From positions 108,628-144,291 of the forward strand of contig CAJNOJ010000205.1 in NCBI GenBank assembly GCA_905250025.1: a stretch of DNA of 35,664 nucleotides, given 5' to 3'. Below the pieces are notes generated by a model. It had not been told where the DNA came from. It saw only the letters and a list, made by a program, of their open reading frames with translations, and made no database searches. Within the stretch, counting starts at the first letter, position 1, and each line of letters begins with the position of its first letter. A program made the translations under genes and the position numbers. Origin of the DNA: Adineta ricciae (Eukaryota). Below, in pieces: positions 1 through 35,540 of the stretch.

Positions 1-1
1 T

Positions 2-9514: not shown

Positions 9515-9516
9515 AA

Positions 9517-14633: not shown

Positions 14634-14695
14634 AACTATATTGCATTTCTGAGATGAAAGTCAATGTTTCAAGTAACACGGTACAATTTATTGTG

Positions 14696-15980
14696 TCACT
14701 CACCGTTGAATGTGTTTTGTTGTCGCTTTTTTCGTCTTATCAGCTTCACTACGAATGGTACCAAGATCCTCAGACCTGTTGATAGACCGCCAATTAACCC
14801 AATCAACGTTGTAATGATGTAAAGCAAATCATTCCTCGTCTCATAAATATAAGTGCATTCAGCAGGGTGACATTGCTTGTAATAATCTTCATGGTTGACG
14901 GACGAATTCCACTGTTCGATCATTAAATTTTGAAGAATGTCATTGAAGGTAGTGTTGATTAAGTAGTTACTGGGAAGTGATGAATTCAGAGCTGTTACTG
15001 CGATTGGTGGAGAATATGTCACATACGATATAACTGTGTCGATACAATTTTGATCGTAGAAGCACTGAAGTGTTGATTGAAGTAATGATTCGATTACATA
15101 GCATCCAATGTAGAAATTCGGTACTTTAAATAGAGGCATAGAGACTGGATAAGTGTAAATAGAAGATTGTCGGACACAGGTACTTGAAGTGGGACAAATG
15201 CAATCATCATCAAATCGGGCCAAATGTATTGCCAAAGAACTTGTAAATCGATCGATACGTATTGTGTAACCGACGAGAAAGTTCGAAAGCAAAGCATTGC
15301 CTTGAGTTGTTTCTCGAACCATAGTGAGCGATGACGAAAAGTCATTAATTATTGACAATTGAAATTGATCGATTAACGCTTGAACTTGAGATTGGAACAC
15401 ATCATAGAGTATGACAGAAGCAGTAACAAATTGATTCGAATAGAATCGATTCAGACTATCCGATATTGTCTGATCAATCAAGTTACAGAAGCTTTTGATG
15501 GCTTGTAATGCAGAAGGGAGTGTGTTTCGAAAATCATCCACAAAAAGATCGATTCTTCCGACTACTACTGTAGGACTCAAATTCAAACCATTCATCCGAC
15601 AGGAAAAAACTTGTACAAACTTGATGTAATGTATAATTGACATGAAGGATGTCTCTGTAATCAATCGAGATATTTTGACATGGACAGGATAATGTTTGAG
15701 AATATGAAGAATTGAGACGAGCATACTCTTCATAGGAAGGTGCTGGCACGCGGACTGTCTTCGTGATTTTCACAACGGATGTGTAGAGAAGAAGAATGGC
15801 CAAAGATAGAATGAAGAGAACAAGAAATATTCGAGTGGAAATGATTTCATTTCGAAATTGATGTGCATCTGTAATGGATTCCATGGACGGGAACAGATTG
15901 AGATGCTGTAGATATGTTTTGCATTTGTCCCATAATCGATGCATCTTGTGGGAAATGGTGTCTGACACTGGAATAGCCAT
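14696..15980 (-). pseudogene. Tandem paralog B of the two-TM glycoprotein gene, split into two overlapping frames (15534-15980 and 14696-15733) by an apparent 1-nt frameshift near 15583; a recent pseudogene or a sequence error
   Basis: The N-terminal frame MAIPVSDT…ISTRIFLVLFILSLAILLLYTSVVKITKTVRVPAPSYEEYARLNSSYSQTLSCPC…SDEWFE matches paralog A and then runs into a stop. The second frame resumes homology at LSPTVVVGRIDLFVDDFRNTL… and continues through the C-terminal TM IITTLIGLIGGLSTGLRILVPFVV and RRKKRQQ. Confidence 0.6.
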
Positions 15981-16434
15981 GTCAAATAGATTTCGATTTG
16001 TGTTAAGGCTCTTACATACTTGCGATTCGGTTGACGAGAAAAGTGGAAAATTCAGTTTTTGTTGCGGAAAAGTTTATAAGCAGGCACCCGTATCTGCCAT
16101 TTTGAAAAAATGATGGTTATACAGTAAAAACTACTTCTCTTCAAGGACGGCATTAACATACGGTCCTCTGATTTTTAAGATTATTTCTTTTCTTCACGTT
16201 TTAATTGAAACGTTAATTATAGTCGACATCCGGAGAAAATAATTTGTCACGTTTTATGTAAATACTCAAAGCAATATCAATATTCTTTCTCTTTCCTGTT
16301 TCCATAGAAACGAGCCGTCTTCGGTATTGCAATTAAAACAAGGAAATCAAAGTTTGAACAAGCCTTTATTGTTTATTTGTTACGGATAAAATGCATATGA
16401 GATGCATGCAATCTTTCTTTTTATTTCACATTGT

Positions 16435-17721
16435 TCAAGAAGAACTAATTAAATCTTCGACTGTGCACCAATATTCATCCCATCCAATTCCTTCTTGAAC
16501 CCAATCCGCACTCTCAACTGGGAACAATGCATCCATTACCATTTGTGCAATTTTCAAATAAGGCAGTGTATCATGTGCAGTGTCGAATTTCTCTGCATAC
16601 ATCAGTGCTCTGATTGTCTTCAGCACATGTTCATCGGGATGTGTTAAGCATTTCTCGATCAGAGGCAGCCATGGATTTATTGCATCGGAATACAGATGCT
16701 CGTTTGATACTTGATATTCATTGCATAAATAATCAACATTGAGCTTTGGTCGGCCACGTGCAACGTAGTATAAAAGGTCAGTTGCGAACTTTGCTTTCAT
16801 CAATTTCAACTGATTTTGTTTGCTTTGAAGTGAATGAACGATAATATCCAAGAAGAGACCACTTGTAGTTGCATGCATGAGAAAAAAATCCAGACGAGGT
16901 GGTTTGTTTGGTCGTATAGCAGCTACATTTGCTAGAATACTCGTTCGTCTAGCGTCATTCAAGTCTGGTTTCCACATTCGTGCATATTCTGCAATTAACG
17001 GACCACCACCTCTTTGTAGAAGTACGGGCGTTTTCGGTCGAGCATCGGTGTAAACGATCATATCATCAAATCGATGATCATTTCTGATCAGTTCAATAAT
17101 TTCCAAAGCTGTTTTATCACCATCTCCACTAAAATTCGAATCTAAACGATCGACAACATCTTTAACATTGATTCGATCAACCGCTGCCATAGCTAGACCT
17201 TCAATGGCCATTCCTTTCGATTGAAACTCAAGAGCATATCCAAGATGAATGAATGGATGATAAGCGCCAGCCAAAATAAGACCAAGATATCCTTTGTTAA
17301 ATGTATAATCTTCGATTAGAGCTTCCATCTTTCCTTGATACTTTTCACTGATTAATTCATTTTTAAAGAATTCCAAATAATCATGATAATACTTATCGTC
17401 ACCTAAGCATTTTTCGGGATCGAAGTTATCTCTTTGATCAAGTGCAGCTAAAGGCTGTTGAATTTTTGTATGTTGTTCAAAGATGTGTTTCAACGTTTGA
17501 GAAGAAGCACCGAATCCTAAAGCAGCTAGAAGATGATGCGCAGTATGATTGTGAAAACCGCCTGGAATATTGAAAAACAGATGATGAACTTCGTGATTCT
17601 TTTCGAGGAGATCAGAACATGTTCGAACTGCTTCAGGTTGAATACCAGGTAATAGACAGACATCATTTTTTCTGAGAAATTCATTGCATGACAAAGCAAA
17701 CATGATGCAGTAAGTTAGCAC
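16435..17721 (-). CDS. DUF4243 / questin-oxidase-like (fungal-bacterial type oxidoreductase family) protein, 428 aa, intronless
   Basis: 1287-nt ORF. N-terminal region HHLFFNIPGGFHNHTAHHLLAALGFGAS and later AYHPFIHLGYALEF resemble the conserved His-rich motifs of the questin oxidase/AflY-like DUF4243 family. The family assignment is from memory only. CT-rich tract just upstream on the + strand (17788-17810). Confidence 0.55.
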   Translation of the reverse strand: MLTYCIMFALSCNEFLRKNDVCLLPGIQPEAVRTCSDLLEKNHEVHHLFFNIPGGFHNHTAHHLLAALGFGASSQTLKHIFEQHTKIQQPLAALDQRDNFDPEKCLGDDKYYHDYLEFFKNELISEKYQGKMEALIEDYTFNKGYLGLILAGAYHPFIHLGYALEFQSKGMAIEGLAMAAVDRINVKDVVDRLDSNFSGDGDKTALEIIELIRNDHRFDDMIVYTDARPKTPVLLQRGGGPLIAEYARMWKPDLNDARRTSILANVAAIRPNKPPRLDFFLMHATTSGLFLDIIVHSLQSKQNQLKLMKAKFATDLLYYVARGRPKLNVDYLCNEYQVSNEHLYSDAINPWLPLIEKCLTHPDEHVLKTIRALMYAEKFDTAHDTLPYLKIAQMVMDALFPVESADWVQEGIGWDEYWCTVEDLISSS

Positions 17722-17888
17722 GAGTGATGTAAGGACAAAAAGTTGATCTAATGGTTATCGCCATTCACGTGGCGTGTATTATTTATCTTTTTTCTTTCTT
17801 TTCTTCAACAATGTCGTTCGTTTTATTTCGTTCTCTTTACGTAATATGTTGACTTATATACAATCAGATTTATTCTGCAATTGAATTT

Positions 17889-18627
17889 TTAGTATTTATT
17901 CACTGTATCTGTTCGTCTACATGATCCTACATTTTTCCATTTTGCTTTAAACCCTGGTAAATTCAAGCTGGGCAGTTTCTTCGTCGGACTTTCTCCTGGC
18001 TTGTTCGTTTGGAGAGCTTGATATTTTATTCCATGAGCACTCACTAAGCTACCACGCAAGTATTTCATCGTCGTATTCCAAACAGGTGGGCATCTTTGAG
18101 GATCATCTTCTAGTTTAATCGATGTTTCACTGCATAAGCCTTTCCAATTGTCAAAATCTGAATTGTAACTTGCCTTTCGTTGACGAAGGAAACATTCGAC
18201 AGCGGCATTATCGCATTGGCAAGTTCTATAAGCACATGTTCCTTCCGGGTCGATGCATTGAATAGTTCCATTCGACATCTTTTTATATTTGTAAGCTTTT
18301 AATAATGGCCTGCACTTCTCGACGGCGGCTTCCGCACTTCCATAACAGTTATCATGTACTTGGCAGCAACGATCTGTTGCATCGACAACCAAATTACCAC
18401 GTTTACCTTTGCCACACCTGAAACGAAGGGAAAGATAATACTTTATTGACACATCGAAAACTTTACCAGCATCCGTAACCATTGTATGCCAGAGGATTGC
18501 CAATAGTGTCGAGAATCAAAGTACCGAATTCAATAACATTCCGATTTTGAATACCAGACACGGCATCTAATAAATCATAGGTGATATTCACAAGAAAGAA
18601 AATATAGAGAAGGTTAACGAAGGACAT
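17889..18627 (-). CDS. Secreted phospholipase A2 (group I/II/X-type sPLA2) with C-terminal extension; 2 exons: join(18467..18627, 17889..18417) on the minus strand, 49-nt intron
   Basis: Exon 1 is MSFVNLLYIFFLVNI… (signal peptide) …AYNGYGCW ending TG|gtaaag. Acceptor tttcag. Exon 2 reads CGKGKRG (Ca-binding loop YGCxCGxGG), DRCCQVHDNCYGSAEA (His-Asp catalytic dyad motif CCxxHDxCY) and TCQCDNAAVECF. 229 codons in total. Confidence 0.8.
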
Positions 18628-18831
18628 TGCATCTAATCAAGTACACTTTGTTTTCGTTTGAGAAAAGTGCGGATCTTAAATATGAAATATCCTTGTAAAT
18701 TGAGGATTAGGTGTTTTCATTAATGTCTGGAAAAGTAATGAAGAATCACGTACAATCAGCTCGAAAACAGGTTTGTTAACGATTTTATTTCGTTTTAGAT
18801 TACCAATTCTATTTCTAGACGATGAAATAAG

Positions 18832-18890
18832 AAAAAAAAACTGTTTGAAGTCAACACTACTCCATACATTTCAATAAATAAATAAATAAT
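18832..18890. repeat. Low-complexity: A9 run followed by the microsatellite (aaat)n aataaataaataaat
   Basis: Direct reading of the sequence at 18832-18840 and 18869-18886, in the intergenic region between the sPLA2 and PARP-like genes. Confidence 0.5.
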
Positions 18891-20078
18891 CATCATTATG
18901 GGAATTTTTTGTTACAGAGTAGTACACATACTGAAGCTCCATGAATTGCCCGAACCAAGATTTGTATTCATTTTGATGAGCTTGGTTTTAGCTCTTGTCA
19001 TACACGATCTCCTCGAGTTCGAGTTTTAGTCGGTACATGAGAGCTGGATGGACAACAAAAATGGCATATGTCTCCCATGATCTCGAATTGCGGTAGAAAA
19101 TATTTATTACTTTGGCATAAACCAGTTGTCTTTTCTTCGTCTGGAATGCCAGTGTAGATAATTACGTTTGCTCTAGAATCTTTGACATCAAGTTCGATTT
19201 GACCATTCTTGCGAACAAGTTGACAATAGATACATTTATTTGGTTCACAGGCAGCGAAATAATTGTGATAAGTGCTTGTGTTGAGTCACTATTTGAGGTA
19301 TTGAACAGAGTGAAATCCGATGGTAACGATCTATTTATTTGCATGTCATGATCTAGGTGATTGACGATTGAAGAGATGCAATTGAACGAATAAAGACAGT
19401 TCAGTGTTGACATGCATAATCTATCGATAGGATAAGATCAGATGGACTGATGTGAAGTGGTTCTTGGCATGTACTGTTCATGAATGTGCAAAGGTATACC
19501 TCGAATAAGTTCAATTATTCGTCAAAATCGAAATAAGCGTCTAATGGTTTCTATTGCCAGTTTGAGAATAAGTAGAAAAAATTACAATCCTCTGTATTTC
19601 AAGTTCTTTAGCAGCAGGAAACGATTGTTTCTCTATCTGTGTCACGCTGTCATTTTTTTACGAGAAAAAGCCTGTGAATTCATTCTTCTACGGGCTTTTC
19701 TATTTGGCCTTTGAGTATTCTCATAAAAGCAAACATAATAACAATCAGTGTACTGCTAGAATTTGAGCAGGATTTAACATATCCGCACCCGCTGCAGAAG
19801 AAGTAAAAGGTTTTTAGTGTTCAGAAGTTAGTCATGCTCGCATTTATTTACATGAAAACCAGAAATATATCGACGGTTGAAAATAAAGAACGCATCTGTT
19901 TCAGCAACTTGTGCAATAACGTAGTCAGTATAAAACTACGAGATGAATAATGTAAAAAATATATGTCAATCTTTCTTTTTCTTGTTCTCGCCATGCACAA
20001 CGCTTTCAGAGCGGATGAGTCATCTACATCTACACGACATATTTGTACCTGATTGTTTGAAATTTTCCTCTAGATTAC

Positions 20079-23000
20079 TTGACTAGAATGTCTTCAGCGT
20101 CCGCATCCACGTTGTCTGGTAAAACCATTCTATTAGAACTTGGGTATGAAAAAGGCTTTAAAGCGAAACAAGAACTGATCAATTTCTTGCGAGAGCAACA
20201 CGCACGTGTTTCGTATATTCTTACAGCTAGTGTACGTATGTTTACTTTTGTACTTCAATCTGTAAAAATCTTTTTTTCCATCAAGACTGATTATGTTTTC
20301 ACGACGAATAATGTCGATAATTCGAAGACGCGTCGTGCCAAACAACTCGGTATTCCACTAATCGACGTCGAATATGTGCGTCAATATCGTTCCTCGTCTT
20401 CTGGACAAATATCGATTGATATCAATAAGTTTCTCATCAAATCGTCCGAAGATCAAGAGAATTTTACGAGAACTGGCACTATAACCGTCTTAGGTATTGT
20501 CGGATTCCTTGTATAACGACAAGCCTTCCTAAAATTGTTATAGAATCTCGACCGAATATGTGTAAAATCAATAAATTCGATGCCAGTAAAATCAAATTAT
20601 GGAATTCCGACGATGAAAAGCTGCCTTGCTTCGACGAACTGACGCATGGTGCTATTGGAAAATGGGCGATCTTTAAAGTATCCTCACATTGACCTGCTCA
20701 TCACTCTTCTTTTTTGATATTCTAGGAAACCACTGATAATTCCCACGTTTTCTTCGCTCTTGAACTTCAAATAATTCCCGAACAATACTACAATCCATCG
20801 ACAAGTGATTATCGCTTGCGATTTCGGTATGAAAAGCAAACTATTACAGAAGGAAAACAGCAAGACAAGAACATTTCGATTCAATATGCCTTTGGAAATG
20901 ATCCTAATGAGCAGCAACAATTATTTGCATTCTATTACAATCGAATATCCACGATGCCACGTATTACACGTATTCGCGACATGTTACCTAATCAATTAGG
21001 TTCAAAATTATTATTACGAGTGAGTTCCTTGCATGTACGGAAGAAAAGCTATGATTGAATTCGTTTTCAGTCGTTGTTCATGCATCGTCTTGATACACAA
21101 ATACTTGATGAGAATGTATGTCAATTGATTGAATCGATTTGGTTGGAGTCAGTTGGTGATGTGAATAAAATCTTGAGTGTCTCACCTGAATTCATCACTC
21201 TCAAAACGGTATGCACGTCTAAAAATGACTGATTTAGTCTCAAATCTACCGTGTTTAGATAGTTGAAGCCGAAGCCGCACTTCTTGAATTGAAATCTACC
21301 AATGATTCGGCAGCAGCAACACGCTTTTATTCGCTTTTACCACATCAACCGTCGTGTCAGATTGACCTCGTGAAAAATCGGCGCGCATTGATGGAAAAAC
21401 TAGATTTATGTCAAGTATGACAAATAGATATCTTTATCTTTTTTGTTGATCGTTTTAACTACCAACAGATGCTGAGGGACATGCTAACAGTGAATGAACT
21501 GACAAACTGGAACATGAAAGCGCCAATTGAAGCAAAATACAGAGCGTTAAAGTGCTACATAGAAGTTCTGTCGAGCTCGACACCTGAGTATAAGAATATT
21601 GCAAAGTTGATTCAATCATCATCCGATAGGTTAATCAATTTTCACCATTCGTTTTGAGAATACTGAATATACAACATTTTTATTCGTTACAGCAGTGAAC
21701 AAGTTCATATTCATAATATATTCAGCGTAGCAAAACAGAGTGATAGTTTGAATTTTCGTTCTACACTATCTTACCAACGGCAGTTATTTCATGGATCTAA
21801 ATATTCGAATTTCCTCGGAATTCTCTCTCGGTAAAACAGTTCATTTCTCATCGAAATTTGTCTATGTTGTCAAATTAGTGGTCTGGTTTTGCCGAAAATG
21901 GTGGCGGAAGACTTCGGTGTTGTGCGTACTGATATTGGTTGTCTTGGTTATGGAATTTATTTCTCAGATTCAATTTCTACATCTCTCAAATATACAACAG
22001 CAAGCACCGCACGACCCGGACGTCGACTGTTATGCATATGCCAAGTGGCATTAGGCGAATCGGCAAATTACTACTCATTTGCACCAAATCTTACAAAGCC
22101 TCCCGATGGCTTCCAGAGTACACATGGAGTCAAACGAACAGAAGATAATCACTCGATGTTTACTGTAAGTTTTAATTTAAGATGAATGCTCTGTTCATAA
22201 TTGGTTCTAGGATAATGAGTACGCAATCTATCAACTTGATCAACAGCTTTTACACTATGTCGTTGAAGTCTCTTGGGCACCAAAGGATGCTTTAAACATC
22301 CAATTGGAACGTTTACCAATCGTTCATCATCAACAATGTGCACTTGACGGTGTTTCAGTTGATGTTCCAACAACGATCGATGATGAAATTATCGAAATGG
22401 CGGAGCAAGATTATGGTTTGATATGTCCGTCATCAGGCAAAATCATTCCGCTACGATCATTTCATCTGCGTGCTCAAGTTGTTGACACAACAGTTGAAGT
22501 AATTCGATTCATTTTTCGATTTGAATGTCTAATTTTATCTTTAACATGCAATAGGTTGTCCTGTATCAAGTCTATTACAACACGAGTTCGATGCCCATCG
22601 AAGCTAAGTACGTTTTTCCATTAGATGAAAATTCCACGGTGTGTGGTTTCGAAGCCCATATTAATGACAAAGTGATTAAAGGTGTTGTCAAAGAAAAAGA
22701 ACAAGCGAAACAAGAATATCGCGAAGCTATTGCCAAAGGTCATGGTGCTTATCTAATGCATCAAGAAGAAGCTCAGGTTTTCAGTGTAGCTGTTGGTAAT
22801 TTACCTGCAAATACCGAAGTCATCATAAAGATAACCTACGTTGCCGAGCTAGAAATCGAAAATGGTGATATTATGTTCCGTCTGCCGGCGAAAATGACTT
22901 CTTGGCAATCAAAGCAAGCCATAGAAGCACGAGATCAATCGATTCTTCGATCGATCGGCATGGTCGACGAGAAAGTGGAATTCACTCTCAGAGCATCCAT

Positions 23001-26000
23001 TCGAATGCCATATAATATCACAAAACTATTTTCGCCAACACATCGTCTTCGTCGAAAAATAACCAATTGCATTGCCATGGTCGAACTCGTTGATAATGTT
23101 CTACTTGACCGAGATTTTATCCTCTCAATCACACTCAATAGTCCGAATTTACCTCGAATATCGACTGAAACCTTGGAAAATTCCAGTTCTCAGGCATGCA
23201 TGTTAACGTTTTACCCAAAATTTGAAACACCAGCTAATTCTCGTGAAGAAATCGAGATTATATTTATTGTTGATGTGTCCAATTCAATGGATGGTACTCA
23301 TGTACACCAAGCGAAACAATTGGCTCATTTATTCCTCACTAACTTATCAATTAATGATGTGAAGACGTATTTTAACATCATTACTTTTGGATCAGGTATG
23401 ATATATTACACAATTTATTGATTGCTATAATAGAATTCGATTTAGATAATGATGAATGCTTTCCTATATCTGTACCAATAACGAGAGAAAATCTTGACAA
23501 AGCTAAACATTTTGTTCTGGTTTGTTACTTTTCTTGAAATAAGTGTCTTCCTCTACTGAATTCATTCTAGCATTCACTGATTCATCGTGGTAATACAGAT
23601 CTATTCTCTGTTCTTCACCGTTACTCACTATTGCCATCCAAATTTTCACGTCAATTTATTCTACTATCTGATGGACACATTCATGACCTCCAGTCGATTC
23701 TCACTCTACTCAAACACCAATCAACATTCCGTCGTGATCGTTTGTTTACCTGTTCAATTGGTAATGTTGCAAATAAGCATTGTCTGAAGCAGCTGGCTAA
23801 CGAAGCAAGTGGAGGTGGTCTAACGATCATATTCGACTCGAATTACCGATCGAAATGGAAAGCTAAAGTGTTAAATCTTCTCGAACATGTTCGACAGCCA
23901 TGTGTGACTAGTATATCGATCGATTGGAATGGTCATATCGATGAACAGGAAAGGTTTCATATGCAAGCACCAAAAACAATTCGTTCTCTATTCAACGGAA
24001 TGCAACTTACTGTTTATCGATTTGTACAGAATTGTCATAAGGCAACGCTGACGGCAATGGTCGACGGACAAGAATTTGTTACCACTGTATTTAGCAATCC
24101 GATGACAATGACAACAGGACGTATTCTACACTGTTTAACTGCGCGAGCGATCATCGATGATTATGCTAATGGGCTATTAGATGCTGATGAAAGTGAAAAT
24201 GAACTAATCAAAGTTCAATATAAGCAAGATCTTATCGATCTGAGCATCAAACATTCAGTTGTTAGTGCGTACACAAGTTTTGTTGCTATCGAAGAGCGTG
24301 ATACGAAATCGAATGTCAAAAATCGTCAATTAGGTAAGCGAAACGAACTAGTACACATTGATATTGAAGTTTTCATTACTGGCCATAGGAGTTCGTCTGC
24401 TTGATATCATGCTGGAAAATGACACGGATCTACTTCCATACATGGGATGGGATGGTGATGTGTCAAATGTGTTAATAATGAAACAAAAACTCATCGATGC
24501 ATGTACTTTACTCGATAGTACACCGATTCAAAGGAAAAAAGAGGTGATTGTTGATATTGAAAAACTTTGTGAAAGTATTTCCTATCGAGCAAGTGGAGAT
24601 GCAAAGTGTGAGATCATGATGAATATCATACGGACGTGTCGGTATTCGTTAAATGAATATGATAAAGCGGATGAAATCGAACAGAAAATGCGGCAAGGTA
24701 GATGATTTGCAGGAACGAATTATGCATTCCTTCGTTTATTTCGAAAAATATTCAGATATACTGATGGAGATGGTAGGTGCAACAGCAGAAGAACGACAGG
24801 TGTTAAAACAACAGTGTCAAGCGAAAAACTTGATATTTACGGATGATGAAATGTATGTAAAATAGCTATGAGTATATCAGAATAAGATTTCTTGCTTTTG
24901 TAGAGATTTGTTGTCTTCCTACGATGGTAAGAAGGCGATTATTCACTCAGACGTAATGATATTTCTTTGTCATAGAAATCAGTGATTCATTTGGAGCGGA
25001 TTTCAAGAACTTAACACCAATTGATCGAACGAAGAAAATGAGAGAATTAACAACTATGGTATGAACATTGAATACTATTTGAGCTATGACGTTTCTTTGT
25101 AGTTAGGTGAAAAGACAGATTTCGATAACGGATGCTTCTTACCAACTACCTCAACTGAAGGAAAGATCATGCCATCCTCGGTAGTTGAGGAACAGGTTTT
25201 ACCGGCAGTAGAACAAGATCCATGGGAAAACATATTACAAGAGCTAGCAACGACAGATGATTGGAGTACGGCTGATTTCGGCTTTCTGGATTGCCTGGAC
25301 GAAACATCCTATGTCGAAATTAGTGAGTACCTATGAAGACCTAATAGTGATTTTCTACGCGTATTCATCCGCATGTTATTGTGGATAACGACATATACGC
25401 TTTTGTTTGTAGCCAGTCGTCTAGATCAAGTACGATCGAGAAGAATGCGTATGTTTCAAGATGCCGAAATCGAAGAGAAAGACGGAGATGTTGACGTATC
25501 CTCATTAATTAATCTGCCTCTTGGTGGAGAAGATCGTCCAGCGGATTTAAATTTACGCTCAGAATCGGACGTTGGATATGTGCCGACACCTAATAATGAA
25601 AAATCTATAGAGGAAAACGACGAGATGGAAAGTAGGTCTGGATATTGTTCAAACTCCTTTTTATTGTGCCTATTATAGTGGAAACAGCTCGTGCATCATC
25701 GATATCGTTGCTTGCGAAATCTGAACACGATACTACAACAACACGTGCAGCGACGTCTACACCTACTACAATTGAATCAGACAGCTTGTATCGAAGGATA
25801 TCATTAGTGGATGAGACTCGATTGAATGCGTCTCAACGTCGTAGTGGCTGCATGTCATCTTCGGCTCCATCAGAACCGAAGATTAGTAAGTTAAGATGAC
25901 TCGTTTTCGTTTTGATTATTCATTTTCATTAATGCATCACGAATACAGAAACACGTGCATCGAGTCCACCTCTTCCTGAAAGGCATGAAGGTCCATCATG

Positions 26001-26898
26001 TGCGACGAACGAATCCACAAGTCTCCATACCAGAGCAGATGACAAAGTAATATCCGAATGCTCACAATTTGTGCTCATGGATCAAGATGAACGACGCCAA
26101 GAGACGCGTAGTCCCATCAGATATACGCCGACAGACGAGCCAGTACGTAGATTAGAAAAAATATTTCTCCACAAAAAGTCTACCTATTCTCAGGAGCTAC
26201 AAACTCGACGAGTTGAATTGTCACGTTTGGCTTCAAACGCAAAACTGAAGAACGAAAGGCGCAAACAGGAGATGCTAGCTGAAAAGAACGTTTTCGGAGA
26301 TATCATAGACATCTCCACCTTCTATCAAAATTCGATGGCTATGTGTGATTTACTACTTATCGATGTATGTCCACTTGGACTGGGCATTGGGGATATTCAC
26401 GGTCAAATGCACACATTAATTCGTCGTAATACGACGATTCCAACACGAACTCAATTTTGGCCAATATTTACCAATGCTTATGCTTATCAAGCAACAGCTA
26501 CCATTCGTATATTCGAAGGTGAACATAAGTTAACGAAATACAATGTACGTTGTAGTCCAATACCATCGACTGTTTTTGAATAATCCTATGTTGATTGTAG
26601 GAATTTTTGGGTGAGTTCGATCTTTCCGGTTTAACGAGTAATTTCACTTCTCGAACACTTCAAATATCTGTTCGTATGGATATTGATGCGAATGGTATAC
26701 TTCGCATCGATGCTGAAGAAGAACTTTCCGGTGTCAAAGCTACATATACCGTCTATAACTCGAGTGAAAAAAGTTCGATATTTATTTATTTGTATTCGTA
26801 ATGACGCTTTTGATATAATCATGTAGGGCTGTCGAGCGATGACATTCAACGGCATCTCATATTCGTAGGAGGTCAAACGGATGCTGCAGCTAAATCTG
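20079..26898 (+). CDS. PARP4 / vault-PARP-like gene, multi-exon (more than 20 exons): BRCT, PARP regulatory helical, PARP catalytic, VIT and VWA domains, with a phase-consistent splice chain continuing into a C-terminal HSP70-type substrate-binding (SBD-beta) domain. The 3' end is uncertain and may extend to ~27850
   Basis: BRCT exons 20079-20231 and 20286-20493 (MTRMSSA…ILTAS / TDYVFTTNNVDNSKTRRAKQLGIPLIDVEYV). PARP regulatory region 21070-21640 (…MLRDMLTVNELTNWNMKAPIEAKYRALKCYIEVL). Catalytic core is LFHGSKYSNFLGILS (21750-21830), YGIYFSDSISTSLKY, LLCICQVALGE (21880-22165) and DNEYAIYQLDQQLLHYVVEV (22212-). VIT at 22440-22900 (LRAQVVDTTVEV…MPIEAKYVFPLDENSTVCGFEAHINDKVIKGVVKEKEQAKQEY). VWA is EIEIIFIVDVSNSMDG (23240-) and continues through 24332. 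Phase-consistent junctions run from 24332 to 26827 (listed in the first finding). Confidence 0.75.
25949..26898 (+). CDS. Exons encoding an HSP70-like substrate-binding beta-sandwich domain (25949..26544, 26601..26763, 26827..26898), part of the PARP4-like splice chain
   Basis: MCDLLLIDVCPLGLGIGDIHGQMHTLIRRNTTIPTRTQFWPIFTNAYAYQATATIRIFEGEHKLTKYN | [54 protein letters not shown] | RLSSDDIQRHLIF… aligns motif for motif with canonical HSP70 SBD-beta ([32 protein letters not shown]…YEGER.[38 protein letters not shown]…GRLSKEEIERMV). The introns fall at positions that restore this alignment. No HSP70 ATPase (NBD) sequence is upstream. Confidence 0.65.
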
Positions 26899-27901
26899 GT
26901 TAGTCTTACACTAGTCGAAATATTATTTATGTTTCATTGTTTCCTGTATAGTTTACGATCGTACACCCGATGATCCGTTGTGTCAAGTTCGTACTATAAT
27001 ATCTTTTTATGGGTTGATTTTGTGTATTTTCGACTAGCTCGGTGGACAAGTTCAGGTCATGCAGCATAACTTCTCTGGTGAATTTGCTGATACAAATCCA
27101 CTAGGTTGGTTATCACCTGTCAGTATATATCATATCTTTGTGAATGTATAGATCAAACAACTGATATTTCACTGTTGAGAAAGTTGAAAGATGTTTGCTC
27201 TACATCTACAATCATCAACGAACTTATGATACTTCAATTTGAAGTCTGATCACTTTTGATACATTGTTAAAATATCGCTAACGTTGTTTCATTGAATATA
27301 GGATGGGTCGTTTATTTTGAACAAGCAGTTAGCCGATGTTTTTCATCTTGATTGTGCAGTTTTTCAAAGTCTTGAACACTATTTAGCTGAACGTGGTTTC
27401 AAATCACTCGGTAAGCTTTCACTATGTGTAAAATCATGGAGAAACAGCGATCTATGGTTACAGCTTTGAACTTACAAAACGAAATTCTTCGTTTGATCGG
27501 TACCGGTCTCATCCTTCTCTGGCTTGTCCACCAAACTCAAGTATCGCATTCTAATTCGCTCGAATTTTCCTTCAGCATTGAGCAAATCAAAGTAACTCAA
27601 GTCGCTTTCTTTACACATTCGGCAATCTTTTTTTTTTTTGGATATCCATCAGATTCATCTTTGCACGAATTATCCTTCTGACATCCACGAACAAATTCTG
27701 AAGGCCATTGACTTTTATCAACGAATCAGTCAACAGCACGGTATCTATTGCCAACAACTAGAGCTCGAGGGCTCATCATGGAACATGTTTGTTCAATATC
27801 TGTTCTTCGCTGACGGTCTTCATAAAACAAACAACGTTTAACAATGTGAAGGCATGGAAAAAAAAACTTTTATTGAGATTAAATAAAAAAAGAAAGAAGA
27901 T

Positions 27902-28375
27902 TTATTGAGCAGTAATGTCTGTTTCTACTTCGAAAACTGGTATCTTTGGCAGTTTTTCTTTGAATATTGGAAAATCTATAACGAAGCAACGCCAGAAATC
28001 TGGTTTCACAATAAATGTCACACAGAGACCACCGCGTGGACAACACCAACAACCAATATAGTTCTTGCAAGTCTTATTTGCTATGTCCTTGAATTTTTGC
28101 GCATTCGCTGACATAAATCGACGATAAAGGGCCCAGCAATCCGTTGGTGGTTTGATAATTATATCATAAGGAATTAATTTTAACGCACGATATTGATGTT
28201 TATCGATAGGTTCGACTTCGACGACATTTTTATCACATTCAGCCAGCCCTTTGAACAGTTCTTCACTTATTTCAAGTTGGCCTGTTTCAGTATCAGCTCT
28301 TTCGATGGTAGCTGCATTGATGTTTGAGCAAAAGAATATTGTAATAGTTAAGATGAATGCTGATGCTTTGTACAT
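27902..28375 (-). CDS. Small secreted cysteine-rich protein (~157 aa from the Met at 28375; the longer ORF extends to 28495), unknown family
   Basis: MYKASAFILTITIFFCSNINAATIE… is a typical signal peptide. The mature part has about 9 Cys including CWCCPRGGLC. No recognisable domain. Confidence 0.45.
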   Translation of the reverse strand: MYKASAFILTITIFFCSNINAATIERADTETGQLEISEELFKGLAECDKNVVEVEPIDKHQYRALKLIPYDIIIKPPTDCWALYRRFMSANAQKFKDIANKTCKNYIGCWCCPRGGLCVTFIVKPDFWRCFVIDFPIFKEKLPKIPVFEVETDITAQ

Positions 28376-28859
28376 TTTGAATGAAGTTTCACAAGATTCT
28401 AACCGATATTTATACGCAAACGAGATATATGTGTGTGCGTAGAAGAAAATGATGCGTAACAAGTATGTGTGTCGATCGGTTTCTATTGACGTCATTGGTT
28501 TTGATCATGAATATATGACTTAGTTCGAAATCGATGAGTGATATTTGCGCATCAGAATATAAAAATAGAACAGAGGAGAAAGTTAGCAGTCAGACCTGAT
28601 TAGATTTTGATGAAAAATAATACGTTTTTCTTTTAACACACCTCGACCATTATAGAGGGAAACGCCAGATTTGCGGATGAACAGATAGATGAATTATACA
28701 GCTCTACCTTGAAAAAAAGAAATCTGTAAGAATGACGTGCACGTCAAAATCAGTTACATTCTAATCTTTTCTCCGACAGCAGAAAGAAATGACGTGTATT
28801 TAATGTCTTTCTCAACAATCTAATATACATCAGTATTTACGCTATACTACTGATTACCA

Positions 28860-29873
28860 ATGTCAGTTGCTTCTACTTCTAGTCTAACAGTCATATTCAA
28901 CAGTGTTAATTGGTCGTTTAACTATGTTATACTGCCGATTTGTTTCATATTAGGAAATGCCGGTAATTGTCTGAACTTGTTGATCTTTGCACGATCGTCA
29001 TCGCGATCAAACTCGTGTTTCCTTTATTTTCTATCTGCATCAGTTATCAACGTAATTATACTGAATTTCGGTCTTGTACTTCGTTTATTGCGTGGCTTGT
29101 GGAATATTGATCCTGCGCTAACCTTATTATGGTTTTGCCGTTTACGTACCTATTTGGTAGGAGCAAGTTTTTTAATCTATCGATTATCGATTCTGTTTGC
29201 TTGTGTTGACCGAATGTGTGCGAGTTCCCGCAGTGCATGGATACGAATGGAAAGTCGTCCGAAAGTTGCTTATCGTTTGATCATATTAATATGGATCATT
29301 TGTGCCATCTATTTATCACCATCTCTAATATATCAGACGATAGTCTATGGTCAATGTTTAGCGCCACCGAACACTATATATGCAACTTACTCAACTATAT
29401 CCACGTTGATTCAAGGATTGTTCATTCCTTCGAGTATGATTCTGTGTGGTATCATTACTTTTCTTCACTTGAAAATGATGCAAAAACGAGTGGAACCACT
29501 ACATAATCTCACAGGACAAAATGAACGTCACATCCTCGGTCAATACCTTGCGATGTTAGTTGTCCAAGTTATTACCGATTTCTTATGTAATATATTGTAC
29601 CCGGCTTATTTAATCTATAATCTTATCTCCCCAGCACCAACCCCAACGACTTTATTCATTTTGAATCTGGCATTCACAACACCTTATTTAAACTTCAGCG
29701 CCGCATTTTATTTGTATACACTATCAAGTCCAAAATTCCGTCGTAAACTAGTTCGTGCTTTGAAACAAATCAAATGGATTCGTCAAAATTCACCGGATGA
29801 TCGAAGTCATGGACACACCGCAACTGCAGTTTCATTGCGTCATCAACCAGTTATAACTGCTTTGTACGCATAG
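28860..29873 (+). CDS. Rhodopsin-like (class A) 7TM receptor, 337 aa, intronless
   Basis: Seven hydrophobic segments. GNAGNCLNLLIF in TM1. DRY-equivalent ACVDRMCAS after TM3. NPxxY-like FSAAFYLY in TM7. The frame-shifted internal ORFs 29056-29238 and 29216-29506 are spurious. Confidence 0.75.
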   Translation: MSVASTSSLTVIFNSVNWSFNYVILPICFILGNAGNCLNLLIFARSSSRSNSCFLYFLSASVINVIILNFGLVLRLLRGLWNIDPALTLLWFCRLRTYLVGASFLIYRLSILFACVDRMCASSRSAWIRMESRPKVAYRLIILIWIICAIYLSPSLIYQTIVYGQCLAPPNTIYATYSTISTLIQGLFIPSSMILCGIITFLHLKMMQKRVEPLHNLTGQNERHILGQYLAMLVVQVITDFLCNILYPAYLIYNLISPAPTPTTLFILNLAFTTPYLNFSAAFYLYTLSSPKFRRKLVRALKQIKWIRQNSPDDRSHGHTATAVSLRHQPVITALYA

Positions 29874-30639
29874 TTTTCTCAGTATGCATTTGATATTGTG
29901 TGTGGTACCACATCTATTTTCTCTTGTCCTTATATTAAAGGGTGTTGTGACTCGAGTACTATTTTCGATGAGATTTTATATGAGCATACATCACGTACTG
30001 CACTTCCTTCTATTCATGATTCTATGGAACATGCTTTGGATGATCTCTGCTCTCGAGGTAGTCTTATCGGATGTATTAAGTCAAGATGTCAACGAAGGGC
30101 TATGTAAGCTCATTTCACTTATGTTAGAATGGTGCACTACTGATCACCAGAGACGAAAAATACTTTCATCTTCATTCTCAATTGATCGTGTAGTGCAATA
30201 AAAATAGGAATATTAAAGAAGATAAAAGTACTGCCGATGACAAATATGGTTATCACAATTGGAAAAGACAGACAAAAATAGGACACATATGACATTTGAT
30301 GGAACATTTATTTTACTGTGAGCTTTGCCAAATAAAAATATTGTCCTTGTTTCGTCGGATTTTGTTTTATGACGATTAATCGTCTAAATCGACAGAAATT
30401 TTATGAAAATTCTGTTTTTGATTCGCGCGGGGTTGGATTTTTGAAGGAGGCGTCATATCTTGTTCTGGAAAATCAAACACTTCAAAACTACGCGCCTGTC
30501 AGCCGCATCGCATCTGAGTTTTTTTTCTAGAAATGGCTGTTTTTAGCATGAAGAAGGGTGAGGGTTCGTAATTAAATATCACGAAAGCTTAATGTATTTT
30601 CTCTTTTACAAATCTATCCGCAACAAATGTCAGACACAC

Positions 30640-30930
30640 CTGCTTCTATGGTCAATCAACTATATTCAATAGCGTCAGTTGCGGTCGTTTAACTATGTTA
30701 TACTGCCGATTTGTTTCATATTAGGAAATGCCGGTAATTGCCTGAACCTGTTGACCTTTGCACGACCGCCATCGCGATCAAACTCGTGTTTCCTTTATTT
30801 TCTATCTGCATCAGTTATCAACATAATTATACTGATGTCCTATGTAATATATTGTACCCAGCTACTTTGGTCTGCAGCCTCATATTTTGAAACGAGTCAG
30901 ATAGATTCGTCGAAACTCACCAAATAATCA
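30640..30930 (+). pseudogene. Decayed partial duplicate of the 28860-29873 receptor gene (N-terminus/TM1-TM2, a short TM6 piece and the 3' end, joined by two internal deletions)
   Basis: 30650-30838 is ~93% identical to 28880-29068 (…NYVILPICFILGNAGNCLNLLTFARPPSRSNSCFLYFLSASVINIIIL). 30839-30868 matches 29583-29608 (cttatgtaatatattgtaccc). 30895-30945 resembles 29775-29830. The copy lacks more than 60% of the CDS. Confidence 0.6.
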
Positions 30931-31096
30931 ACACACTCGGGAAGCTAACGGAAACACCCCTATGCTTAATTTCCGTGCGTCTTCGAGAAATGACAGCGTT
31001 ATATCATTAGTTGTTTCATGGTCTCAGTGTGAATGGCAACATGTGAAGCGAATAGAATCTTTATTAATCCATCTCTTTTAAAGTTGAATAAACTTA

Positions 31097-32137
31097 TTAA
31101 TGAGGATGCATAATGATTGTATTGGCATCATTTGTTGGGACGATTGGAAAACGACGTAAAACACTACTACGACAGAGATTGATGAATTCAAGTCGGAATG
31201 GTCTGGATATTGAAATAAATAAATAGAATGGAACAACACCAGTTAGATAGACAAGCATGAGACTAATAAAACTGTAGAAGGCTTCTATTTCTAACCTCTC
31301 TGTGGTTTTATTCGTCACATAGTATGTCAATGCACCATAGAGAAGATTAATTCCATATGGAACCGATGAGATAATATTAATGACGACTTCGGTAATGACC
31401 ATATAAGCAAGATGACGATCTAATTTTCTGGCAGAGACTTGACTTGCATTATGACGCTGATATAGATCACGAATCGTTAAAAGACTGAAGACTGCCATTA
31501 AGATAGGAGGTGTAAAAGTAAAAAAAATAATTTGATAAATTGCATACGATAACTTGTACATGCCGAACATTCCACAAGTGCCGGCGCTGTTAATATACAT
31601 CAATATGGGCATATGCAGAGGAACTAATGTGCATATAACGCACATAATGCAAACAAGTATTATTGCTGCTTTAATCGAGCTGAGCGAGCGAAGACGCACG
31701 TTTGCTCGTGTAGCAAAAAATCGATCGATGCAAGCAAGAACGACTGCATACCGAAGAAAAAGACTGAATGTATGGCTGCCGTATTGCCGTACTTTACAAT
31801 AGAAGACGGATTGAGTTTGAAGATCCGTGTTATTAAGAGCATAAAGCAACGGAGGAAGCGTCCAAAGCAAAAACATGATTGAAAATATTGATAAGGAAAG
31901 AAGATAAATTGAGCTGGGACTACGTCGATATGCCCGGCGTGTAAATATTAGACAGTTGCAAATACTGCCGACGACACCTAAGACAAGATATAGGCTAACA
32001 CCATACCGAATGATTTCTCGTTGAATAGCTGGTAACCGTGTTACTGCCATCGTTTTCTTTGCTATTTGTGAAGCGCATTTTTCTGAAGATTTATAAGTAG
32101 AATAAAACGTTGGAATTTGTATCCAAGTTATCAGCAC
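31097..32137 (-). CDS. Rhodopsin-like 7TM receptor (second, divergent paralog), 346 aa; the start may be the internal Met at ~32050
   Basis: 1041-nt ORF. GSICNCLIFTRRAYRR in TM1/ICL1. DRY-equivalent ACIDRFFATRANVRLR. Seven hydrophobic segments. NxxxY-like segment near the C-terminus (TGVVPFYLF). Confidence 0.7.
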   Translation of the reverse strand: MLITWIQIPTFYSTYKSSEKCASQIAKKTMAVTRLPAIQREIIRYGVSLYLVLGVVGSICNCLIFTRRAYRRSPSSIYLLSLSIFSIMFLLWTLPPLLYALNNTDLQTQSVFYCKVRQYGSHTFSLFLRYAVVLACIDRFFATRANVRLRSLSSIKAAIILVCIMCVICTLVPLHMPILMYINSAGTCGMFGMYKLSYAIYQIIFFTFTPPILMAVFSLLTIRDLYQRHNASQVSARKLDRHLAYMVITEVVINIISSVPYGINLLYGALTYYVTNKTTERLEIEAFYSFISLMLVYLTGVVPFYLFISISRPFRLEFINLCRSSVLRRFPIVPTNDANTIIMHPH

Positions 32138-32805
32138 CTATTCATATGGTTCTTCCTGTGTTTTCATTTGCAATTTCATTCTTACAAGTTCATTTTATCG
32201 TCGATAAATGACACAGTGTTTGTTAGATGTCAATAAAGCAAATACAACATAGGATGAGAATGTCTCTTGTCATTTAGGACTTTAAATACAAGATAAAGGT
32301 TATAATGTCATCAAAGTCATATAGATTCAAATTTCTACATTTCACATATTCATTAATATTCCATTGTCGTATAGACTGTTTTGACTAATCTTCTCGTATT
32401 GATGCAAACATGCATGCATATATCTAGCCCACATGTATGACAGTTACTCACAGAATCAATGAGTAAGCCACCTGATGATACATACGCGGCATGCACATTA
32501 TGTTTCTCCTGTCACTTTTCTTTTCTCTCGTTCTGTTGCAATACTCTCCTTCCCTCCGGTGTATAATATCGCTTTTCAATGAATCACCGCGAAGAACTTA
32601 CATTCTCTGCTTGTTCTTATCAATACACATATATATATAATCTCAACACGAATCAGTTTCATATTTTCGTTCTATGATACACAACTACCTAGTAGTATAT
32701 ATTTTACAAAGCAGAAAATAATTGCCCTTTAATATTTTCTGTAATTGATGCGCATATATAATATTCCAGTTTTATTTACTGACGCGAGTTCATATTAATT
32801 TCAGA

Positions 32806-35328
32806 ATGGCAAGTAATACGACTTCAGCTGCTCAAAGTATGCAGGGTTATTCACTCTCGCAATTTTTCACCACGTTAACCGCTTCTGCAATCATTGCTGG
32901 TATTGAAGTTGTTTTATTTATTATTATCAGAACGATATTTAAACGTATCTATGAACCAAAAACATATCTTGGAGACGAAAAACAACGTGTTAAGCCGTTA
33001 CCTCGTACACCATACGGATGGTTACCTGCTCTATTAAAAATGCCGCCAGAAGATCTCATTCGTACATCTGGCCTTGACGCTTATTTATTTGCACGTTATC
33101 TCTACATTCATGCTTTGTTTTTCTTGAGTTTCTTTCCTCTCCTAGGAGTTATTCTATTCCCGATCTACACAGTTAATGGTAAAGGTGCGACTTTGGGTAA
33201 GACTGGGCTGGATATTCTAACATTCGGAAACATTACACCACGTCATTCGCTACGATATATAGCTCCGTTGATACTAGCATATGTTTTCATCGGTGCATAT
33301 CTTCTTCTTCTGTACGTCGAGATGAAGGTTTTCGTTGGGAAGCGTCAAGCGTTATTACGAAATGCAGCATATCAATCTCGTGCTAGTGCAACAACGATTC
33401 TTGTCACTGCTATACCAAAACCGTATTTACATGTCGATGTTCTCCACCGAATTTTCGATCAATTTCCCGGTGGAGTGAAATATATTTGGCTCAATCGAAA
33501 TCTCGGAGATCTTCCGGATAAGGCAGAACAACGTATGGAGTTAGTCGAAAAGCTCGAAACAATCTTGTCCAAATTGATGAAAACCGTACTGAAAAACAAG
33601 GCGAAATCGAAAACGAACCTGAAGGTTCATGCTACAGTCGAAGAAGAAGGTATGATTAATCATTACATCCCACAAAAGAAACGGCCAACAATGCGAGTTG
33701 GATCCATACCAGTACTTTCATCATTGTGTTGTGGCAAAAAAGTCGATGCTATCACACACTGTAAAGCGACAATTTCGCAACTGAATACGGAAATCGAGAG
33801 TGCACAATCAAATTTAAAAGATTATAAGCCAATCAATTCTGCATTTATTCAGTTTAATTCGCAAATAGCAGCACATATGGCTGTACAGAGTGTTGCGGCG
33901 TCCATCCCGCTCGCCATGACACCGCGATATATCGATATCAGACCATTGAATATAGTCTGGTCGAATCTAAGATTAACCTACTACGAACTGAAAGTCAGAA
34001 AACTCATCATGGTAGCAGCAACAGTAGCGCTCATTGTCTTCTGGACTATTCCCGTCTCTATCGTCGGTATTCTTTCTAACATTACATATCTTACGGATAA
34101 AATCACCTTTCTGAAAGTCATTTATAAACTCCCGACAGCACTTCTCGGTGTCGTCACTGGCCTCCTACCGGCAGCTCTATTGGCTATTTTGATGGCATTG
34201 TTACCTATCGTTTTGAAACTATTAGCATCACTGTCCGGTAAACCTACAACAGATGCTATTGATCGTTATGTTCAAGGTTCTTACTTTGTTTTTCAAGTGA
34301 TACATGCGTTTCTATTTGTGACCATTTCGAGCAGTGTCTCCAGTGTAGCTGTTGATATTATTCAAAACCCGCCACTGGCTGCAACTATTCTCGCTGCGAA
34401 TATTCCAACTGCCAGTAATTTCTTCTTTAGTTTTATTGCACTGCAGGGATTAAGCGTAGCTTGTGGTGTTCTTTTACAAGTTTTCACCTTAATTTCTTTT
34501 TATCTGCTTGGTAAATTATTCGATAATACGCCACGAAAGATCTGGAGACGATATTTCACACTTTCAAGTCTCAGCTGGGGCACGATCTTTCCTGTTTTTA
34601 CAAATTTCGTTGTTATCACTTTAGTTTATTCGATAATCGCGCCCCTAATCCTAATCATATCCGCTTTGGCGTTTGCTTTGTTTTACATTGCTTATGCGTA
34701 TACGATGTTTTATGTGAACGATTTTCCCAACGATTCTGGCGGCCTGGCTTTCCCAAGAGCAATTTACCAGTCATTTACCGGTGTCTATTTAATGGAAATT
34801 ATGCTTGCAGCTCTGTTTTTTCTCGTACAGAATGAGGTCGGCGCACAAGCTGCTGTTCCTCAAGGTGCTCTGATGTGTGTCTTAATCATCATTACATTTG
34901 TTGTCCACATGGCCATGCGATCCAGTTTCGATCCACTGACATATTATCTACCGGTTGACGCTGATGAATACGCACAATTAGAAAATCCAGGCACACGAAT
35001 GTTTCCGATAGCGAGAACGGCCATGCATAGGATCAGTTATTGTCGAACGACGAACATGAACGATGTTGTCGTGGACTTCTTCGATAACACAATGGAAAAT
35101 GCATATATACATCCAGCACTACGAGATCCTACACCAATTGTATGGATTCCCGAAGACAATATAGGTATTGCAATGGATGAGATTCAACGAACTAAAGTAT
35201 CACATCCGAATGTTTTTATGTCAACGAAAGGCGCGACATTTAATGAGAAGACCAAAATTGTGGTCAATTCTCATCCACCTGATTATTTCAAAGCACAAGG
35301 CGAAGATATTATTCAAGCGCGATTTTAA
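32806..35328 (+). CDS. CSC1/OSCA/TMEM63-family (DUF221) calcium-permeable stress-gated cation channel, 840 aa, intronless
   Basis: 2523-nt ORF. N-terminal RSN1_TM-like region RIYEPKTYLGDEKQRVKPLPRTPYGWLPALLKMPPEDLIRTSGLDAYLFARYL (compare fungal CSC1 RVYEPRTY…G.FGW…S..D.I…GLDAY.FLR). Cytosolic PHM7_cyt-like region SRASATTILVTAIPKPYL. 10-11 predicted TM helices with DUF221-like core (ALLPIVLKLLASLSGKPT…FFFSFIALQG). Confidence 0.8.
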   Translation: MASNTTSAAQSMQGYSLSQFFTTLTASAIIAGIEVVLFIIIRTIFKRIYEPKTYLGDEKQRVKPLPRTPYGWLPALLKMPPEDLIRTSGLDAYLFARYLYIHALFFLSFFPLLGVILFPIYTVNGKGATLGKTGLDILTFGNITPRHSLRYIAPLILAYVFIGAYLLLLYVEMKVFVGKRQALLRNAAYQSRASATTILVTAIPKPYLHVDVLHRIFDQFPGGVKYIWLNRNLGDLPDKAEQRMELVEKLETILSKLMKTVLKNKAKSKTNLKVHATVEEEGMINHYIPQKKRPTMRVGSIPVLSSLCCGKKVDAITHCKATISQLNTEIESAQSNLKDYKPINSAFIQFNSQIAAHMAVQSVAASIPLAMTPRYIDIRPLNIVWSNLRLTYYELKVRKLIMVAATVALIVFWTIPVSIVGILSNITYLTDKITFLKVIYKLPTALLGVVTGLLPAALLAILMALLPIVLKLLASLSGKPTTDAIDRYVQGSYFVFQVIHAFLFVTISSSVSSVAVDIIQNPPLAATILAANIPTASNFFFSFIALQGLSVACGVLLQVFTLISFYLLGKLFDNTPRKIWRRYFTLSSLSWGTIFPVFTNFVVITLVYSIIAPLILIISALAFALFYIAYAYTMFYVNDFPNDSGGLAFPRAIYQSFTGVYLMEIMLAALFFLVQNEVGAQAAVPQGALMCVLIIITFVVHMAMRSSFDPLTYYLPVDADEYAQLENPGTRMFPIARTAMHRISYCRTTNMNDVVVDFFDNTMENAYIHPALRDPTPIVWIPEDNIGIAMDEIQRTKVSHPNVFMSTKGATFNEKTKIVVNSHPPDYFKAQGEDIIQARF

Positions 35329-35540
35329 GATTTTCATTTGCAATCATAAATTATGAGTAGTATGTAAATTTCATAAAAATCTCATCGTTAGACAAGTCAA
35401 AAATTTTAATGGACGAGAATGGAATTTAAAATCTTTTTGATCAATTTTATAAATAAAAATGATATATGAAAAAGATAAGAAGACAAGTAATCTGCAAAAA
35501 TTCACAAAAGAATCACATCCTTATTCAATACATGTCATTA

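Follow-up and report, generated by a model that had tools for sequence, protein, structure and literature searches.

In humans and other vertebrates, PARP4 follows one order of domains: a BRCT domain, a PARP1-like regulatory region, an ADP-ribosyltransferase with an H-Y-E triad, an ITIH-like VIT-vWA block, a tether that is long and disordered, and finally a helical domain at the C-terminus, called MINT or MVP-ID. In the human protein, this last domain anchors PARP4 to repeats 3-5 in MVP, the major vault protein, near the vault waist (PMC12280208, PMC10450202). PARP4-like proteins elsewhere carry actin, 14-3-3 or ubiquitin-related domains (Perina et al., 2014, PMC4245714), the actin fragment being found in those of sponges, choanoflagellates and Capsaspora (PMC4245714). 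Most animals have a single PARP4 gene (PMC4245714); bdelloid rotifers, by contrast, have several paralogues. Here we describe a stretch of 35,664 nucleotides (nt) from the bdelloid Adineta ricciae (assembly GCA_905250025.1, contig CAJNOJ010000205.1, positions 108,628 to 144,291), referred to below as the window, which was analysed over its whole length. Positions 20088-27841 of its forward (+) strand hold a predicted bdelloid PARP4 orthologue into whose tether the substrate-binding domain (SBD) of an Hsp70 chaperone has been inserted.

The gene model was built from a three-frame translation of the region, in which open reading frame (ORF) segments were joined via GT-AG introns. The chain runs from an ATG at 20088 to a TAA at 27839-27841 and comprises 29 exons, with a coding sequence of 6234 nt that encodes 2077 amino acids (aa) and contains no internal stop. 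All 28 introns are of the GT-AG type and measure 44-90 nt. Their GC content is 0.316, against 0.399 in the exons, and retention of nearly any one of them leads to a stop after a few codons. On the 3′ side of the vWA exons, the junctions lie at 24333|24389, 24697|24756, 24852|24904, 24926|24976 and 25058|25103, followed by 25322|25413, 25631|25679, 25885|25949, 26544|26601 and 26763|26827. A first-pass annotation of this DNA, made from the letters alone, had listed ten junctions here; the last five and the acceptor at 24389 agree with ours, while four others had to be moved by 1-13 nt. The 23-nt micro-exon at 24904-24926 (+) is required for the reading frame, and its residues also occur in the public model of this gene.

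That public A. ricciae protein (CAF1287590.1, UniRef A0A815D1S1, here P0392) has 2063 aa and is encoded on a 190-kb contig. It is the protein of the 29-exon chain, micro-exon included, save for two local splice choices. One concerns an in-frame GT...AG segment of 51 nt at 26143-26193 (+), whose 17 aa (VRRLEKIFLHKKSTYSQ) are coding in our 2077-aa model and intronic in P0392; both options are compatible with the sequence alone. The other concerns a donor: P0392 uses an alternative site at 26773, 9 nt 3′ of 26764, and thereby gains the residues SEK. An independent predictor thus gave the same fused gene as our chain. The first-pass annotation had read BRCT, PARP, VIT, vWA and an Hsp70 SBD devoid of the nucleotide-binding domain (NBD, the ATPase domain) as one polypeptide, and the 29-exon ORF, the Pfam matches and P0392 bear this out. 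Positions 24515-35664 of the window match the first part of the 28-kb contig CAJNOR010001277.1 (assembly GCA_905250095.1) with 100% identity. From this second Adineta ricciae contig comes P0243 (CAF1112265.1, 779 aa), an exact C-terminal suffix of P0392, whose 5′ truncation corresponds to the contig end at window position 24515.

All domains of the gene are encoded on the + strand. Exons 1-2 (20088-20493, residues 1-118) encode a putative BRCT domain (Pfam BRCT at residues 9-80, E 7e-4). Its score of 20.2 bits is slightly below the Pfam cut-off of 21.3, which the orthologues P0003 and P0027 exceed at 24-26 bits. The ADP-ribosyltransferase catalytic domain (residues ~398-575) lies at 21586-22276, introns included, and is matched by Pfam PARP at residues 398-554 (E 4e-25). 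Its best match in the PDB is human PARP4 (E 3e-43), with PARP1/2 at ~1e-13. The H-Y-E triad is kept: the His of LFHGS, the Tyr of GIYFSDS and the Glu of DNEYAIY align with the human PARP4 residues. The VIT domain follows at 22451-22839 (residues 634-744, Pfam VIT E 9e-38) and the von Willebrand A domain at 23254-23813 (residues 883-1035, Pfam VWA_3 E 8e-13, VWA E 1.5e-9). Together with a partial HSP70 match, these are the Pfam families that had been expected of the translation, BRCT being recovered just under its cut-off. Judged by its domain matches, the gene is an orthologue of PARP4 (vault PARP, a clade 5 PARP) and, with BRCT weakly matched, follows the vertebrate order of domains given above.

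The Hsp70 module occupies 26347-26855 (residues 1727-1858). It consists of the Hsp70 interdomain linker DLLLIDV (26347-26367), the β sandwich of the SBD (SBD-β) and the start of helix A, and is interrupted by introns at 26545-26600 and 26764-26826 (alternative donor 26773). Pfam HSP70 matches residues 1725-1856 with an E-value of 2.6e-25, covering only positions 380-509 of the 599 in the profile. A phmmer search of the PDB retrieved SBDs (E 1e-25 to 1e-21) of BiP, Hsc70, Hsp70 and DnaK, the matches beginning at DLLLIDV and ending where helix A starts. The module is 45-50% identical to Hsp70s of the eukaryotic cytosol and endoplasmic reticulum (ER). Both of these outscore DnaK and mitochondrial Hsp70 and are equal to each other, which points to a eukaryotic donor of the cytosolic or ER type. 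With the SBDs of BiP/HSPA5, Hsc70/HSPA8 and DnaK, the module shares the interdomain linker, the eight-stranded β sandwich, helix A, the pocket I401/F426/I438/I472 and the arch residue Ala429. What it lacks in comparison with Hsp70 is the ATPase domain, the lid past helix A and an EEVD or KDEL tail. As the first-pass annotation had already concluded, no Hsp70 ATPase domain lies upstream: a tblastn search of the entire 35.6-kb window with five full-length Hsp70s (E ≤ 10) found none, the sole match being the SBD at 26326-26858. Neither Pfam nor PDB matches revealed a helical lid (SBD-α) beyond helix A in the window protein; the Pfam match ends at profile position 509, and no Hsp70 lid was detected in the post-SBD spacer (26856-27243, residues ~1859-1936). 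In the bdelloid paralogue P0027, a weak Pfam HSP70 extension reaches profile position 561.

To compare the substrate pocket, 27 bdelloid copies were aligned with 54 Hsp70s; residues are given in DnaK numbering. The pocket residues I401, F426, Q433, I438 and I472 and the arch residue A429 are invariant across the bdelloid copies, all of which have Ala at V436 and Asp at T403. In DnaK, D431 and R467 form a latch onto the helical lid. Conserved in 54/54 and 52/54 Hsp70s, these two positions are Ala and Ala/Ser, respectively, in the bdelloid copies, a replacement that is consistent with the absence of the lid. The rotifer module further differs from Hsp70 in a 2-residue insertion before F426 and in a bdelloid-specific motif, NAYAYQTTATIRIFEGEH, in place of (S/T)TYSDNQPGVLIQVYEGER. 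N415 and the DIDANGIL loop, which are Hsp70-type surface features, are retained. The LLLL linker is kept in 19-23 of 23 bdelloid copies despite there being no NBD for docking. Conserved without an ATPase domain, DLLLIDV may serve as an internal pseudo-substrate or offer a handle to an Hsp70 NBD acting in trans. The motif DVCPL was also considered as a signature of BiP origin and rejected; Didymodactylos has DVAPLSLGIE and the second paralogue clade DVTPL.

An AlphaFold2 model was calculated for the Rotaria sordida homologue P0123 from 81 sequences, including Hsp70s. Its predicted local distance difference test (pLDDT) score was 71 overall and 80-90 in the SBD; an earlier model of P0121, based on 22 sequences, reached a pLDDT of 43 and was not used. 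The P0123 model contains eight strands, a 12-residue helix A, a segment with pLDDT <50 and then a helical C-terminal domain. Foldseek matched its SBD part to the SBDs of DnaK, BiP and Hsp70 at E 2.5e-13, with a root-mean-square deviation (r.m.s.d.) of 1.7-2.1 Å over 134-144 columns and a template modelling (TM) score of 0.8 against β-only chains.

The module is flanked on both sides by PARP4 sequence. The tether, ~500 aa between vWA and SBD, is encoded by eight exons at 24389-26346 (residues ~1209-1726) and begins with a conserved helical stretch, followed by a poorly conserved low-complexity linker; the ORF stays open across its 44-90 nt introns. Beyond the SBD, the chain continues through six exons (26952-27841, ~220 residues). 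Within these, 27152-27838 encodes a C-terminal helical domain that phmmer aligns with residues 1574-1703 of human PARP4 (E 7.7e-4), and which is a homologue of MINT/MVP-ID. In this search, made against all PDB sequences, it was the last ~140 residues that matched the human protein (PDB 9bw6, 9bw7 and 11jf), and BLASTP of the C-terminus found the cnidarian PARP4 P0040 (E 2e-5). MINT was undetected in the C-terminal fragment by a Pfam scan at E ≤ 0.1, evidently performed with a Pfam copy that lacks or under-scores PF26156; this family is precomputed on the same gene in CAJNOR010001277.1 (C-terminal half) and on homologues. Because a MINT homologue lies downstream of the SBD, the latter is, by the order of its predicted domains, an internal insertion into the tether rather than a new C-terminus, and ~70 residues separate it from the MINT-like domain downstream. 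The idea that the SBD had replaced the MVP-interacting end of PARP4 is therefore abandoned.

Four residues of human MINT contact MVP, namely S1614, K1618, Q1682 and R1689 (PMC12280208); K1618 is the salt-bridge Lys and R1689 an Arg singled out as the MVP-ID surface's conserved centre. The window protein retains S1614 and Q1682, whereas K1618 is replaced by Asn and R1689 by Gln, so that two of the four contact residues are changed. At the position of R1689, Gln is found throughout bdelloids and Arg in cnidarian and fish PARP4. The MINT changes at 27302-27838 suggest an altered or co-evolved MVP interface.

Public bdelloid models of PARP4 fall into three classes: 17 long models in which SBD+MINT accompanies the N-terminal domains, models of 1150-1850 aa that cover the N-terminal part and have neither SBD nor MINT, and short SBD+MINT models. 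The long models, together with P0392 and P0394 from Didymodactylos, give 19 fused models in 8 bdelloid species, and so the same architecture does exist in related genomes, where the first-pass annotation had proposed to look for it. That so many models are divided into an N-terminal half and a short SBD+MINT protein would fit the view that the SBD-MINT exons are expressed apart from PARP-VIT-vWA, as a second transcription unit or as a major short isoform; a separate gene starting near 25100 had indeed been offered as an alternative. We consider such an arrangement unlikely. The models are not split at a consistent place: P0127 and P0129 begin within the β sandwich, at MHTLIRRN, and P0243 owes its start to a contig end. 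P0124 is an exact piece of P0007, and bdelloid models without SBD are also without MINT, with the sole exception of P0010, which skips the SBD only. From their sequences, the short SBD+MINT models look like prediction or assembly splits. The tether introns, at 44-90 nt, leave no room for a terminator and a promoter, and a scan for AATAAA and ATTAAA found neither between 22675 and 27878. The first polyadenylation-signal-like hexamer after the vWA exons is an ATTAAA at 27878-27883 (+), 37 nt beyond the stop codon. The orthologous locus of A. vaga (L001) holds one called gene, P0003 (I4U23_015385), and tblastn of the 2077-aa protein against this locus is colinear over the full length. This includes the linker, where residues 1392-1595 match with 27% identity (E 3e-15); the linker exons are conserved at the protein level and in frame. 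Moreover, MINT belongs to PARP4 in every other animal retrieved. On the strength of these comparisons, 20088-27841 is a single gene.

Across bdelloids, identity to the window copy is 59-76% in the SBD, 64-83% in the catalytic domain and 68-84% in vWA; it is 36-67% in MINT and 31-56% in the post-SBD spacer, and most of the linker is unalignable. Against the A. vaga orthologue, the ratio of non-synonymous to synonymous substitution rates (dN/dS, Nei-Gojobori) is 0.11 and 0.29 in the SBD exons, compared with 0.08 in the catalytic domain, 0.03 in VIT and 0.15 in MINT; with dS at 0.6-1.3, near saturation, these values are approximate. The motif FTNAYAYQ(T/A)TATIRIFEGEH.LTKYN is near-invariant between paralogue clades that are otherwise ~45% identical. 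Measured by these substitution patterns, the inserted SBD is under purifying selection. One could regard the module as a functionless, decaying relic of exon shuffling, given that the flanking tether evolves fast and gains other domains (in some paralogues it holds EF-hands), or else as an assembly chimera. Both are highly improbable in view of the low dN/dS of the SBD, the near-invariant motif shared by such divergent clades, and the occurrence of the module in 8 species, assembled independently and belonging to three bdelloid orders. On this recurrence, an assembly artefact was rejected.

The fused architecture is found in Adineta, Rotaria and Didymodactylos carnosus, and in both A. vaga paralogue clades (P0003, P0027), from which it follows that the insertion predates those splits. 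Outside bdelloids, PF00012 is absent from 83/83 listed PARP4 homologues of molluscs, cnidarians, sponges and vertebrates. When the SBD+MINT region served as the query, the combination was returned in bdelloids only, with ordinary Hsp70s next at E ~1e-21. When 1.84 billion cluster representatives were searched with a profile, SBD+MINT was again confined to bdelloids among the matches named, most of the short matches not being identified; the long non-bdelloid matches (Toxocara, Jatropha, Daucus and Striga) are annotated as, or resemble, Hsp70 models.

Other clade 5 PARPs share the principle of an extra module after the VIT-vWA block. The sponge PARP4 P0041 has an actin fragment at 1300-1369, and ubiquitin (PF00240) is present in the molluscan PARP4 proteins P0038, P0039 and P0042. 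Within bdelloids, two EF-hand pairs lie in the tether upstream of the SBD in P0009 of R. socialis (~1400-1550) and P0004 of A. steineri (~1340-1440), matched by Pfam EF-hand_7 at E 1e-24 to 3e-29; the window gene has no EF-hands. With EF-hand pairs and the SBD, the bdelloid tether has therefore gained at least two kinds of module, and modules seem to have entered the PARP4 tether repeatedly. What distinguishes the present case from PARP4 proteins with actin, 14-3-3, ubiquitin or EF-hand modules is that the module is a chaperone peptide-binding domain.

A link to stress comes from the response of A. vaga to X-rays. The PARP4-like gene FUN_013713, with Pfam domains PF00012+PF00644+PF08487+PF13768, is induced with a log2 fold change of 4.5 at 2.5 h (false discovery rate 4e-94), 2.9 at 8 h and 2.0 at 24 h, and FUN_002086, a PARP4-like gene with PF00012, with a log2 fold change of 1.8; the MVP genes of A. 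vaga are radiation-induced too (Moris et al., 2024, PMC10809525). In Tables S5/S8 of that study, FUN_013713 is binned as 'HSP' in one and as PARP2_3_4 (base excision repair, BER) in the other (PMC10809525), a double classification that results from its mixed Pfam string. FUN_002086 is listed under PARP (BER). The string of FUN_013713 also includes a mitochondrial-carrier domain, so this gene model may be a merger with an adjacent gene. In the proteomics supplements of PMC10665377, the A. vaga genes have no entry.

We propose, with a probability of about 0.55, that the module acts as an ATP-independent peptide-binding adaptor on a vault-tethered PARP4, encoded by a single gene that bears the insertion. 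With the ATPase-driven allostery and the lid gone, and the pocket and arch kept, the module would not cycle in cis. The lack of ATPase and lid together with the retained pocket makes an ATP-independent, fast-exchange binder the most likely option: a lidless SBD would bind exposed hydrophobic peptide segments with fast exchange, as a holdase or adaptor. Located beside the vault anchor, it could hold unfolded or damaged polypeptides on vault-tethered PARP4, where, as the animal recovers from desiccation or irradiation, they might be sequestered or ADP-ribosylated. Several points weigh against this proposal. Two of the four MVP-contact residues are changed, so that vault anchoring would follow from homology only. 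With Asp at T403 and Ala at V436, the peptide specificity may be unlike that of canonical Hsp70, and simple client binding does not account for an LLLL linker that is strictly conserved although the NBD is missing. The structural model is that of a homologue with 60% identity (71% in the SBD), and not of the window protein. Finally, the induction figures belong to FUN_013713 and FUN_002086, neither of which is assigned as the orthologue of the window gene.

The conserved linker would also fit an arrangement in which the lidless SBD bound the D-LLLL-DV linker of the same or a neighbouring PARP4, so as to multimerise or gate PARP4 inside the vault, without foreign clients. There is a parallel in lid-truncated BiP, the oligomeric state of which (PDB 7a4u, 7a4v) is among the closest structural matches; BiP oligomers form through trans-engagement of the interdomain linker. 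Both proteins have a lidless SBD preceded by a hydrophobic linker. However, the BiP constructs are engineered truncations that keep the NBD, whereas the lidless, NBD-less state of the rotifer module is natural and conserved. Self-association of this kind is possible, although we think it the less probable course. The linker residues also begin strand β-1, so that their conservation could serve folding, and the interaction is in any case compatible with client binding. The same retained linker, along with N415 and the DIDANGIL loop, could instead make the module an adaptor to the canonical Hsp70 system, which would recruit J-proteins, an Hsp70 NBD in trans or co-chaperones and bind no substrate of its own. 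This appears improbable, since conservation is strongest in the substrate pocket, and we know of no precedent for such an adaptor. The ATP-independent peptide-binding adaptor remains our preferred reading. An extension of it, that bdelloid vaults bear, via PARP4, an ATP-independent Hsp70-type clamp that couples damaged proteins to ADP-ribosylation or to sequestration in the vault, is tentative and rather doubtful at present.

The neighbourhood of the gene (positions 1-19900 of the window) is syntenic with positions 1-5952 of the A. vaga locus L001, a TRPM2-like and a questin-oxidase-like gene lying upstream of PARP4 in both. In the window, these are a TRPM2-like exon at 6841-7470 (+) and a questin-oxidase-like ORF at 16435-17721 (-), with a BTB-BACK ORF at 9517-11559 (-) between them. 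Directly downstream of PARP4 and convergent with it, the public annotation has a small gene of 157 aa at 27902-28375 (-), whose product has a signal-peptide-like N-terminus, several Cys and no Pfam match. Two rhodopsin-family G-protein-coupled receptor (GPCR)-like ORFs follow at 28860-29873 (+) and 31097-32137 (-). They share 174 bp at 93% identity in inverted orientation (28893-29064 vs 30662-30835) and have the appearance of a local inverted duplication. At 32806-35328 (+), they are followed by a CSC1/OSCA-like channel gene (RSN1_7TM).

The first-pass annotation knew of no described protein with this architecture. It is in fact already predicted in NCBI and UniRef for eight bdelloids and appears in the supplementary tables of Moris et al. 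(2024). We found no discussion of a PARP4-Hsp70 fusion in the literature searched, including the text of that paper (PMC10809525). The fusion is bdelloid-wide and has been present, unremarked, as predicted proteins in public databases.

It is still unclear what PARP4 and the vault do; as an experiment of nature, an SBD maintained by selection beside the vault anchor throughout the lineage suggests a concrete activity, hydrophobic-peptide binding. For Hsp70 biology, the module is a rare natural case of an SBD-β that has long been without ATPase domain and lid, in which the pocket and linker are constrained and the latch has been released. For bdelloid biology, the gene is a candidate for the stress-tolerance toolkit. 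If the vault clamp outlined above were real, it would give the vault particle a role in proteostasis and contribute to the desiccation and radiation tolerance of bdelloids.

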